Virus record (IMG/VR): IMGVR_UViG_2531839667_000017
Coordinates: 1 to 41,654 of that record
Length of the DNA: 41,654 nt
Reading direction: 5' to 3' (one strand)
Source: a virus
Taxonomy: Duplodnaviria; Heunggongvirae; Uroviricota; Caudoviricetes
Under the pieces are notes generated by a model. That model searched no databases, was not told the DNA's origin, and saw nothing but the letters and a program-made list of their open reading frames with translations. Numbering within the stretch: position 1 is the first letter of the stretch; each line of letters opens with the position of its first letter. Both the position numbers and the translations under genes were made by a program. Positions 29,263 through 31,507 of the stretch are shown here, one piece after another.

Positions 29263-29308
29263 TCGCTTTTCAGCGACGTAGGACGAATGTCCGTTGTTAC
29301 AAAGAGCG
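29263..29308 (-). promoter_or_regulatory. nutR (boxA-like CGCTCTTTG; hairpin GGAC-ATTC-GTCC; boxB-like UCGCU-GAAA-AGCGA)
   Basis: Same order, spacing and boxB loop as nutL, with different but complementary stem bases. Confidence 0.7.
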
Positions 29309-29315
29309 GGGTTAC

Positions 29316-29549
29316 TTATGCTGCTGATGCTCTACGCGATACGAACACCAGATTTTCCTTTTTCACAGGTTTATAACCCGTGAAATTACGAGTGGCTTCT
29401 TCGATTGCATTCGCTTTATCTGGGGAAGCTCTTCGAAACCCATATGCAATCTGATCAAGATAGCCAACTGAAGTATTCGCTAATGCGGCGAGTCGCTTCC
29501 ATTCCTCACTAGAAGCCTCTTTTCGCCAGCGTAGTAGTTCATTACTCAT
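29316..29549 (-). CDS. cro: Cro-like repressor (HTH; YdaS/Cro family, tentative)
   Basis: 77 aa; ATG 29547-29549 with GGAGG SD; divergent from cI across an operator region. Confidence 0.7.
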   Translation of the reverse strand: MSNELLRWRKEASSEEWKRLAALANTSVGYLDQIAYGFRRASPDKANAIEEATRNFTGYKPVKKENLVFVSRRASAA

Positions 29550-29560
29550 TAGTGCCTCCG

Positions 29561-29650
29561 TTTATCACACAGAGCAACTTTACCATTTTGATAAATAAAA
29601 CGCAATGAAGATTTATCAAAATGCATATTTATCCATTTGCTAAATAGAGG
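29561..29650. promoter_or_regulatory. OR operator/promoter region (pR and pRM); operator-like 17-mers at 29579-29595, 29612-29628, 29628-29644
   Basis: TTTACCATTTTGATAAA and TTTATCCATTTGCTAAA show dyad symmetry around TTTAYC half-sites; pR candidate on the minus strand has -35 TTGCGT (29600-29605) and -10 TAAAGT (29577-29582). Confidence 0.6.
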
Positions 29651-29662
29651 GAGAATCGTGGG

Positions 29663-30367
29663 ATGGAAAACAAAGATATTCGCAAATCGAATCTGGCGTT
29701 TTTGCTAGATGAGCATAAAAAAATCGCGGGTAACACTAATGCAAGCTTTGCCGATAAGCTTGGAGTTAGCCCTTCTCAACTCACGCAAGTCTCCGGTGAA
29801 AAAAGCACTCGAAACATAGGGGATAAACTAGCAAGAAAATTCGAAGCCGCACTTGGGTTACCTAATGGGTGGCTTGATTTGGTACATGATGTAACACCAA
29901 TTGCATCATGCTCAGATTCTTTAACTTTTGTCGGTCAGGTAAGAAAAGGGTTAGTGCGCGTGGTTGGTGAGGCAATTCTTGGTGTTGATGGTGCCATCGA
30001 GATGACCGAAGAGCGCGATGGGTGGCTCAATATTTATAGCGATGATCCAGATGCCTTTGGTCTTCGTGTGAAAGGAGACAGCATGTGGCCCAGAATAAAA
30101 TCAGGAGAATATGTACTCATTGAGCCTAACACCAAAGTATTCCCGGGGGATGAGGTGTTTGTCAGAACTGTTGAAGGACACAACATGATCAAAGTTCTTG
30201 GCTATGACAGAGATGGAGAATACCAATTTACAAGCATCAACCAGGACCACAGGCCAATAACGTTGCCTTATCATCAAGTAGCAAAGGTGGAGTATGTGGC
30301 TGGTATTCTGAAGCAATCTCGCCATCTGGATGACATCGAGGCAAGGGAGTGGCTGAAAAGTTCGTGA
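29663..30367 (+). CDS. cI: CI repressor (HTH plus S24 LexA-like autopeptidase domain)
   Basis: 234 aa; N-terminal HTH, C-terminal GDSMWP (Ser) and K (Lys) dyad motif. Confidence 0.88.
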   Translation: MENKDIRKSNLAFLLDEHKKIAGNTNASFADKLGVSPSQLTQVSGEKSTRNIGDKLARKFEAALGLPNGWLDLVHDVTPIASCSDSLTFVGQVRKGLVRVVGEAILGVDGAIEMTEERDGWLNIYSDDPDAFGLRVKGDSMWPRIKSGEYVLIEPNTKVFPGDEVFVRTVEGHNMIKVLGYDRDGEYQFTSINQDHRPITLPYHQVAKVEYVAGILKQSRHLDDIEAREWLKSS

Positions 30368-30635
30368 CTTCATCGTCACATAGCTGGTAACCAGTGGCCT
30401 GAAGAGACGTTTGGGTGATGTGATAGAGATCATTATTCAATTCGATTGAGAAAAATCATCATAAGGTTTATATCCATTTATTAGATTTTATGTGTATAAA
30501 TAGTTAAAAATGCACGATGTAGAGATATTTGTGCTTAACATCAATTAATCATTGCTAAATCGTGCTTATTGTTCAGAAATCGCCCAAGTCATATTGAAAA
30601 TCTGTTGGCGAACACCTATATAAGGAGTATAGTTA

Positions 30636-30998
30636 GTGACCCAAAACGTATTGCCAATCAACAAGAGCTTGCATGACCGAGCTGTTGATGAATTTAATCG
30701 TCTGCATGGAACAATGATTGGCGAGATTAGTGCAATGCTGAAAACAGCTAAAGTAGCGCCATTGGTGGATCTTCGTAAGAAAGATCCTACCTTTTCGAAC
30801 GTTGTCGCAGAATTACGGACATTCAGAGACGTATGTAATGCTCTGCTCCCATACTTTCGTGTAGATAAGACCAGCGAAATCGCTGTCATCGATAAGTTAC
30901 TTATACTGGCTAATGACCTGGCTCAAGCCATCGATGCTGACGATCCTGACGCATTGTGCGCAGCAATAGCAGCCCTTGATGTTGAGCCTTACATTTAA
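30636..30998 (+). CDS. hypothetical protein (120 aa) immediately downstream of cI
   Basis: GTG 30636-30638 with AAGGAG SD 8 nt upstream; soluble, helical-looking, no recognised motif. Confidence 0.6.
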   Translation: MTQNVLPINKSLHDRAVDEFNRLHGTMIGEISAMLKTAKVAPLVDLRKKDPTFSNVVAELRTFRDVCNALLPYFRVDKTSEIAVIDKLLILANDLAQAIDADDPDALCAAIAALDVEPYI

Positions 30999-31013
30999 AC
31001 GAGGGGAAAAAAA

Positions 31014-31109
31014 ATGACTAAAGCGTTTGACTATACTGCCGTTAGTAAGCTTTTGGCTGAAATGCGCGGATGTGTAGAGCGCGTTCAAAATCTACGCCGC
31101 GACTTTGAA
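31014..31109 (+). CDS. hypothetical small protein (31 aa)
   Basis: ATG 31014-31016 preceded by GAGGGG; found by reading the sequence. Confidence 0.35.
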
Positions 31110-31164
31110 GCTCACATCAGTCATTCACAAAAAGCGGCTTGATACTTAAGTTAGATGACAGAAC

Positions 31165-31190
31165 CCGGCCTCAGCGCCGGGTTTTCTTTG
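31165..31190 (+). terminator. intrinsic terminator closing the cI-proximal operon
   Basis: CCCGGC-ctcagc-GCCGGG hairpin followed by TTTTCTTT. Confidence 0.7.
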
Positions 31191-31370
31191 CCTCACGATC
31201 CCCACACCTAATAACACCTTAACCAATTGTATTTATTGAAAAATTGATAGATACAACTTTCTAAACCACGAAATTCTGATCCCCCTCAAGTCTCTTCATT
31301 CCTTCTGATAAATTCCCGCAATCAAATAAAAAACCATAATAATCAACAGGATATTTGAAAACCCAAACAA

Positions 31371-31414
31371 TTTATCATTTTGCTATTGCCATCAGTTTAT
31401 CATTTCGATAAAGT
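31371..31414 (+). promoter_or_regulatory. OL/pL (operator TTTATCATTTCGATAAA at 31396-31412; -35 TTGCCA 31386-31391; -10 TAAAGT 31409-31414)
   Basis: Perfect dyad-symmetric 17-mer of the same family as the OR sites overlaps a sigma70-like promoter pointing at nutL and N. Confidence 0.6.
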
Positions 31415-31460
31415 CAACTTATCAGCAGGACGCTGTAAGCCAAACGGAGCAGACTGGCAG

Positions 31461-31507
31461 GCTCTTTAAACAACGTCGAACACTCGACTACGTGGCTGAA
31501 AAGCCAG
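31461..31507 (+). promoter_or_regulatory. nutL (boxA-like GCTCTTTA; hairpin GTCGA-ACAC-TCGAC; boxB-like UGGCU-GAAA-AGCCA)
   Basis: Between pL and the N-like gene; architecture parallels nutR. Confidence 0.7.

Follow-up and report, generated by a model that had tools for sequence, protein, structure and literature searches.

H-19B-type two-hairpin nut sites in the immunity region of a lambdoid prophage

The window analyzed here, a stretch of 41,654 nucleotides of viral DNA (Caudoviricetes; IMG/VR record IMGVR_UViG_2531839667_000017), carries two sites, nutL and nutR, at which a boxA and a boxB stem-loop are separated by a spacer that itself contains a short hairpin (hairpin 1). We consider it highly likely that these are the nut sites of a lambdoid prophage of the H-19B/HK97/Shiga toxin (Stx) phage group, with hairpin 1 acting as a "reducer" of spacing. 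We directly observe the location and architecture of the sites, the covariation in their stems, an effective spacer of constant length, and a type of N antiterminator that tracks boxB and not hairpin 1. The two-hairpin nut architecture is already known as the H-19B type, and its recognition in the window is a correct rediscovery, not a new finding, because the hairpin matches the spacer stem-loop described for H-19B.

At both sites the parts follow in the same order: boxA, unpaired spacer, short hairpin, UACG, and boxB stem-loop. The nutL and nutR strings quoted in a preliminary description of the window are both present where it had placed them, with nutL occupying 31461-31506 on the plus strand (its end had been put one base too far, at 31507) and nutR occupying 29308-29263 on the minus strand. 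The individual parts are as follows.

31461..31468, plus strand: nutL boxA core GCTCTTTA (GGCUCUUUA including the preceding G), which matches the rrn-type boxA UGCUCUUUA (PMC2724277)
31469..31474, plus strand: nutL 5' unpaired spacer AACAAC, with the conserved ACAAY element
31475..31488, plus strand: nutL hairpin 1 ("reducer"), GTCGA-ACAC-TCGAC, from folding and covariation
31489..31492, plus strand: nutL linker TACG
31493..31506, plus strand: nutL boxB TGGCTGAAAAGCCA, that is TGGCT-GAAA-AGCCA, a 5-bp stem with a GNRA tetraloop, from folding and covariation
29300..29308, minus strand: nutR boxA CGCTCTTTG
29293..29299, minus strand: nutR 5' unpaired spacer TAACAAC
29281..29292, minus strand: nutR hairpin 1 ("reducer"), GGAC-ATTC-GTCC, from folding, covariation, and identity to the spacer hairpin of H-19B and HK97 nutR
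29277..29280, minus strand: nutR linker TACG
29263..29276, minus strand: nutR boxB TCGCTGAAAAGCGA, that is TCGCT-GAAA-AGCGA, from folding and the annotation of phage epsilon34

A composite pattern of boxA core, 14 free bases, TACG, and boxB matches only nutL and nutR in the 41.6 kb, with 0 matches expected from 100 shuffles. Both sites have, 5' of boxB, a boxA that is near CGCUCUU(U)A (GGCUCUUUA at nutL and CGCUCUUUG at nutR), the reference boxA sequences being UGCUCUUUA in rrn and CGCUCUUA in lambda (PMC2724277). The boxB of the window measures 14 nucleotides (nt), with a 5-bp stem and a GAAA tetraloop, in contrast to the 15-nt pentaloop boxB of lambda, P22, and H-19B. The stems of the two sites differ just as had been described, with a compensatory change at the second boxB pair (G-C at nutL, C-G at nutR) and with hairpin-1 stems of GTCGA/TCGAC and GGAC/GTCC, respectively. 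The open reading frame (ORF) map, Pfam matches, and a pL-like promoter place both sites on the transcribed strand and downstream of the early promoters, leftward for nutL and rightward for nutR. The promoter and N enclose nutL, and nutR falls in the interval from cro to cII, an arrangement that matches the annotated lambda and P22 records; an N with an arginine-rich motif is encoded beside nutL.

Homologous loci were collected in two ways, via N homologues and by scanning viral contigs with a TACG-plus-boxB pattern in which the upstream hairpin was not specified, and hairpin 1 played no part in the selection of sites. A search of genome contigs with N gave only four loci. Pair counts are based on a covariance-model alignment of 62 sites, 46 of them distinct, which replaced a MAFFT alignment of 35 sites in which the 5' arms were out of register because loop lengths differ. 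All 52 unique sites whose 5' flank is nut-like have a stem of 4 bp or more that directly abuts TACG; by comparison, of 23 unrelated matches to the TACG-boxB pattern, 10 are stemless and just 2 have a stem of at least 5 bp. Over both helices of the 46 distinct sites, 99.5% of cells are paired (74.7% in shuffles), and the covariation score is 0.501, compared with 0.105 in shuffles (0/500 reach the observed score) and at most 0.048 in slid controls.

Double changes are found in four of the five hairpin-1 pairs and in two of the five boxB pairs. The latter are the outer two, which covary (UA/AU/CG/GC and CG/GC/AU), while the inner GCU/AGC is invariant. With 100% of its cells paired, boxB is maintained as structure, its short stem carrying a purine-rich, GNRA-like loop. 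In hairpin 1, we find about 10 unrelated stems, namely, GUCGA, GGAC, GGGC (with G.U), GGACG, GGUGA, GGUGAA, GAUUC(N), GAAGG(U), GAAGA(U), and GGCC, closed by loops of 3 to 7 nt that are free in sequence; among phages with near-identical N, the nutL loop alone takes the forms ACAC, ACTC, CTC, ATC, and GCAC. With some 10 distinct stems and double changes at most of its pairs, hairpin 1 behaves as expected for the H-19B type, in which pairing matters and sequence does not. The presence of G.U pairs in hairpin 1 (GGGC/GUCC, GGACG/UGUCC, and GGUGAA/UUUACC) indicates selection on the transcribed strand, as RNA. Compensatory changes across the distinct homologous sites thus bear out the earlier proposal of structural selection on both hairpins. 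With respect to the flanks of hairpin 1, ACAAC or ACAAT precedes it in 38 of 45 distinct sites, and the linker is TACG in 44 of 45 and CACG in 1, the pattern used for most sites having required TACG. At the sole CACG-linker site (L127, 11424-11468, minus strand), the boxB loop is GCAA and the loop of hairpin 1 is 3 nt long.

Counted from the end of the 8-nt boxA core, spacers measure 21 to 29 nt in total, of which 10 nt are left unpaired in 24 of 31 variants (range, 8 to 11). The hairpin-less nut sites of P22 have spacers of 10 to 11 nt, and the lambda spacer is 8 to 9 nt. As in the H-19B type, the dyad symmetry lies within the boxA-boxB spacer at nutL and nutR alike, and the hairpin cuts the effective spacer to the length seen in hairpin-less nut sites.

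In every locus compared, without exception, the boxB loop type tracks the arginine-rich-motif class of N: the GACAA loop pairs with the ...SRRRERLKAKAL motif (127-residue N), and the GAAA and GCAA loops pair with ...RRRxxRxxLQ-type motifs (N of 88 to 120 residues). Hairpin-1 types show no such sorting: they are mixed among the N classes, nutL and nutR of a single phage have different ones, and an identical GGAC-AUUC-GUCC hairpin accompanies more than one arginine-rich motif of N and more than one boxB loop. We also observe that the tetraloop boxB (GAAA; GCAA in L121 nutL and L127 nutR) co-occurs strictly with a single N arginine-rich-motif class.

Phage H-19B has two hairpins at nutR, with which its RNase T1 pattern is consistent, and N-dependent terminator read-through has been shown for this site (PMC3526286, citing Neely and Friedman 2000 for the site). 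In the H-19B record (AF034975), nutR reads CGCTATTTT-CACAAT-GGACATTCGTCC-TACG-TCGCTGACAAAGCGA and nutL reads ...TATACAAC-GATTCGAATATGAATC-TACG-GCGCTGACAAAGCGC; the order boxA, ACAAY, hairpin, UACG, boxB is shared with the window, and the spacer hairpin, UACG, and boxB are present at both H-19B sites. The nutR hairpin GGAC-AUUC-GUCC is identical in the window, H-19B, and HK97, whose nutR is the same as that of H-19B. Furthermore, the cI, cro, and cII genes of H-19B are equal in size to the window genes, and the N proteins of H-19B and the window share their N-terminal motif and last 21 residues. The differences concern boxB (a 15-nt GACAA pentaloop hairpin in H-19B, a 14-nt GAAA tetraloop hairpin in the window), N (127 versus 90 residues with 41% identity, and a motif context of SRRRERLKAKAL versus SRRRARRANLQ), the nutL hairpin (GAUUC/GAAUC versus GUCGA/UCGAC), and the nutL boxA, which is good in the window and not in H-19B.

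The absence of the GACAA pentaloop from the window marks a subtype with a different N arginine-rich motif. This pentaloop is not defining for the reducer architecture, and the difference from the H-19B architecture is limited to the boxB tetraloop and the N subtype. Judged by their sequence, the window sites have, the pentaloop aside, every feature by which a nut site and the H-19B-type reducer architecture can be recognized at that level. The name "reducer" for the H-19B spacer stem-loop reportedly comes from Neely and Friedman (2000, Mol Microbiol 38:1074), according to whom mutation of one arm is said to inactivate NUT and compensatory changes to restore it, with deletion of the hairpin having little effect. 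H-19B N reportedly requires NusA and does not require NusB, S10, or boxA.

The nutL/N module of the window is 95 to 97% identical to that of VT2-Sakai, 2851, Stx2 II, and many other Stx phages, and in VT2-Sakai, 2851, Stx2 II, and epsilon34 nutL hairpin 1 differs from that of the window in small loop changes only (e.g., CUC versus ACAC). For the cro-nutR-cII module, identity to BP-4795 and Stx1a phages is about 95%, and nutR itself is up to 100% identical over 80 nt to that of Stx phages (VT2-Sakai, 2851, Stx2 II) and of Salmonella phage epsilon34. In the epsilon34 record (EU570103), the 14-mer TCGCTGAAAAGCGA of the window is annotated as "putative NutR - boxB"; the spacer hairpin is not named among the features listed under the matches in the VT2-Sakai, 2851, Stx2 II, and epsilon34 records checked. 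No relevant family came up in an Rfam scan of 28500-32500 with E values up to 10.

Phage P22 resembles the window in its rrn-type boxA (CGCUCUUUA), its 5-bp boxB, the length of its unpaired spacer, and its gene 24 protein, an N homologue with 41% identity and the same C-terminal motif, whereas its nut sites have neither a spacer hairpin nor a UACG linker and the boxB loop is a GACAA pentaloop. Lambda follows the same overall plan, in which boxA, spacer, and boxB succeed one another 3' of pL and of cro and the boxB loop is GNRA-like and made of purines; it differs in its shorter, unstructured spacer, in its boxB (GCCCU-GAAGA/GAAAA-AGGGC), in an N that belongs to another sequence family, and in the classical requirement for NusB, S10, and boxA. 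In lambda, boxA is the NusB/S10 site. The preliminary description had held that the extra first hairpin is missing from lambda nut sites, and we confirm this; the P22 sites are without it as well.

Folding was predicted with ViennaRNA. For the 47-nt nutL sequence the two-hairpin fold is the minimum-energy structure (-12.8 kcal/mol, z = -3.25), and for nutR hairpin 1 is predicted in all contexts, with boxB joining it when the context is 71 or 91 nt long. In the partition function, the boxB helix keeps its probability when hairpin 1 is deleted in silico (0.59 to 0.65 at nutL, 0.61 to 0.58 at nutR), and in silico disruptions of the arms affect boxB folding inconsistently, the nutR boxB probability going up. 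A competing helix between boxA and the 3' arm of boxB appears in the minimum-energy folds of some contexts; this long-range helix was rejected, with its only informative pair unpaired in 17 of 39 sequences and a covariation score of 0.040, compared with 0.027 in shuffles.

By homology, and in the light of the published work on H-19B and lambda, the sites would be bound by N and Nus factors and would depend on spacing in the following way. Transcripts from pL and pR would carry an rrn-like boxA, a spacer with the extra hairpin, and a boxB stem-loop, the last being bound by the arginine-rich motif of the N encoded just 3' of nutL, and N together with NusA and other host factors would make RNA polymerase resistant to terminators. 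Inside the spacer, hairpin 1 would sequester 11 to 19 nt in a stem-loop of arbitrary sequence and would thereby draw boxA and the conserved single-stranded flanks, 5' ACAAY and 3' UACG, near boxB, with an effective spacer of about 10 nt, like that of hairpin-less relatives. The ACAAY that follows boxA mirrors the rrn boxA-spacer junction UGCUCUUUA-ACAAUUUA, and NusA binds rrn spacer RNA, ACAAUUUA (PMC2724277); ACAAY and UACG would together be a functional single-stranded spacer.

Four results, namely, the tracking of N type by boxB, the constant unpaired spacer, the lack of covariation in the long-range helix, and the lack of a consistent effect on folding, favor a spacing reducer and argue against both a folding insulator and a specific second recognition element. 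The latter had been the suggestion of the preliminary description, whose identification of the nut sites and of structural selection on both hairpins stands. That N also binds hairpin 1 specifically, besides boxB, is improbable in our view, since one N meets two hairpins that differ in stem, loop, and size at nutL and nutR, one and the same hairpin goes with several arginine-rich motifs of N and several boxB loops, the loops vary freely in length and sequence, and boxB alone tracks the N type. In addition, P22 gp24, whose identity to the window N is comparable, works on nut sites that have no hairpin, and removal of the hairpin from H-19B reportedly changed antitermination little, the kind of outcome that the preliminary description had itself named as refuting its suggestion. 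Specific recognition would be in keeping with the conserved position of hairpin 1, with its closing G-C pair, which never varies (45/45), and with footprinting of H-19B nutR, in which Gs of the spacer region are protected in the complex with N and NusA/NusG, making contact with the hairpin possible (PMC3526286). The invariant pair, unexpected under a pure "any hairpin will do" model, and the protected Gs also count against spacing as the role of hairpin 1; so, for the comparative evidence, does the fact that the covariance-model alignment was fitted to the structure and that TACG and the boxB core look conserved in part because the pattern used to collect most sites demanded them.

We regard it as similarly unlikely that hairpin 1 serves as a folding insulator, tying up spacer bases that would misfold with boxB or boxA, with boxB folding as the benefit. 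The title of the H-19B paper mentions "alternative NUT RNA structures," and the competing boxA:boxB helix does appear in some minimum-energy folds, but this helix does not covary, the boxB helix is as probable after deletion of hairpin 1 as before, disruptions of the arms have no consistent effect, and the constant 10-nt unpaired spacer is left unexplained. An action outside NUT RNA, with the dyad serving as a palindromic protein site on DNA or as a terminator or pause hairpin, is very improbable: hairpin 1 is a perfect inverted repeat in DNA and a simple terminator scan weakly flags the antisense of the nutL hairpin, but the stem sequences are unrelated between sites, such that a common DNA motif is absent, only the sense strand tolerates G.U pairs, the stems are just 4 to 6 bp, and on the sense strand UACG and boxB, and no U-tract, come after the hairpin.

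Returning to hairpin 1 as a reducer, there is a small but real chance that the GNRA-tetraloop boxB (GAAA/GCAA, 14 nt) and the "RRRxxRxxLQ" class of N constitute a distinct natural mode of recognition, structurally uncharacterized, and that the reducer helix offers a contact point at its base (e.g., for NusA) instead of passively adjusting length. The contact point is suggested because the closing G-C pair is invariant, ACAAY and UACG flank the helix, and the unpaired spacer is fixed at 10 nt.

The surroundings of the two sites form a lambdoid immunity region with cI, cro, cII, and N, as follows.

31386..31414, plus strand: pL-like sigma-70 promoter TTGCCA-17-TAAAGT upstream of nutL, from a consensus scan only, at a position that fits the lambdoid layout
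31605..31877, plus strand: N antiterminator gene, 90 residues, with the arginine-rich motif SRRRARR near the N terminus (Pfam PF25694 N_peptide; PHROG 271 "anti-termination protein N-like")
29316..29549, minus strand: cro, an ORF with 95% DNA identity to the annotated cro of BP-4795 and Stx1 phages
28881..29177, minus strand: cII (Pfam Phage_CII, 108 bits)
29663..30367, plus strand: cI repressor, with a Peptidase_S24 domain and a length equal to that of H-19B cI

The N protein scores 111 bits against PF25694 N_peptide (cutoff, 27.9), and its identity to H-19B N (41%) is likewise found with P22 gp24, the C terminus being common to them. Two further ORFs on the plus strand have no Pfam match, one of 120 residues between cI and pL (30636-30998) and one of 153 residues overlapping the end of N (31811-32272). 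Some 1.4 kb downstream from N, the leftward early operon contains an IS21-family element (33271-35072, minus strand) that may interrupt the genes of the pL operon; it encodes IstB (373 bits) and a transposase that resembles IstA and has rve and HTH domains.

Among the relatives, we noticed three unusual nut loci. In L193 (1430-1550, plus strand), three consecutive nut-like units come right after a 395-residue integrase ORF, and the N gene is absent from the 2.6-kb locus. Unit 1 has boxA and GCGCT-GAAAA-AGCGC; unit 2 has boxA, the reducer GGAC-ACTC-GTCC, TACG, and TCGCT-GAAA-AGCGA; and unit 3 has GGCT-GAAAA-AGCC. Such an array could belong to an element able to use the N of several helper phages. 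L045 (852-2121 and 3694-4142) is a natural hybrid, in which a lambda cI-cro-nutR segment (97.8% identity; its boxB, GCCCUGAAAAAGGGC, is that of lambda) is combined with a window-type N and a reducer-type nutL with a GAAA-tetraloop boxB; its nut sites with different boxB types raise the question of N cross-specificity. L085 (2080-2135), from Escherichia albertii, has a P22-like nutL without a reducer, GGCTCTTTAA-CTTCGATGGC-GCGCTGACAAAGCGC. The flank upstream of this site, CAGATTGGCAGGCTCTTTAA, and that of the window nutL are homologous, which suggests that the hairpin originated when part of a P22-like spacer was replaced or when sequence was inserted into it.

As a discovery, the finding has small value, identical sequences being present in many sequenced Stx and related phages. 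What is added here is comparative support for the published model, in the form of about 10 unrelated stems kept by compensation, a constant 10-nt unpaired spacer, and a boxB that tracks N specificity. These results could aid the annotation of nut sites, which Rfam does not cover, in Shiga toxin prophages, where N-dependent read-through feeds toxin expression.

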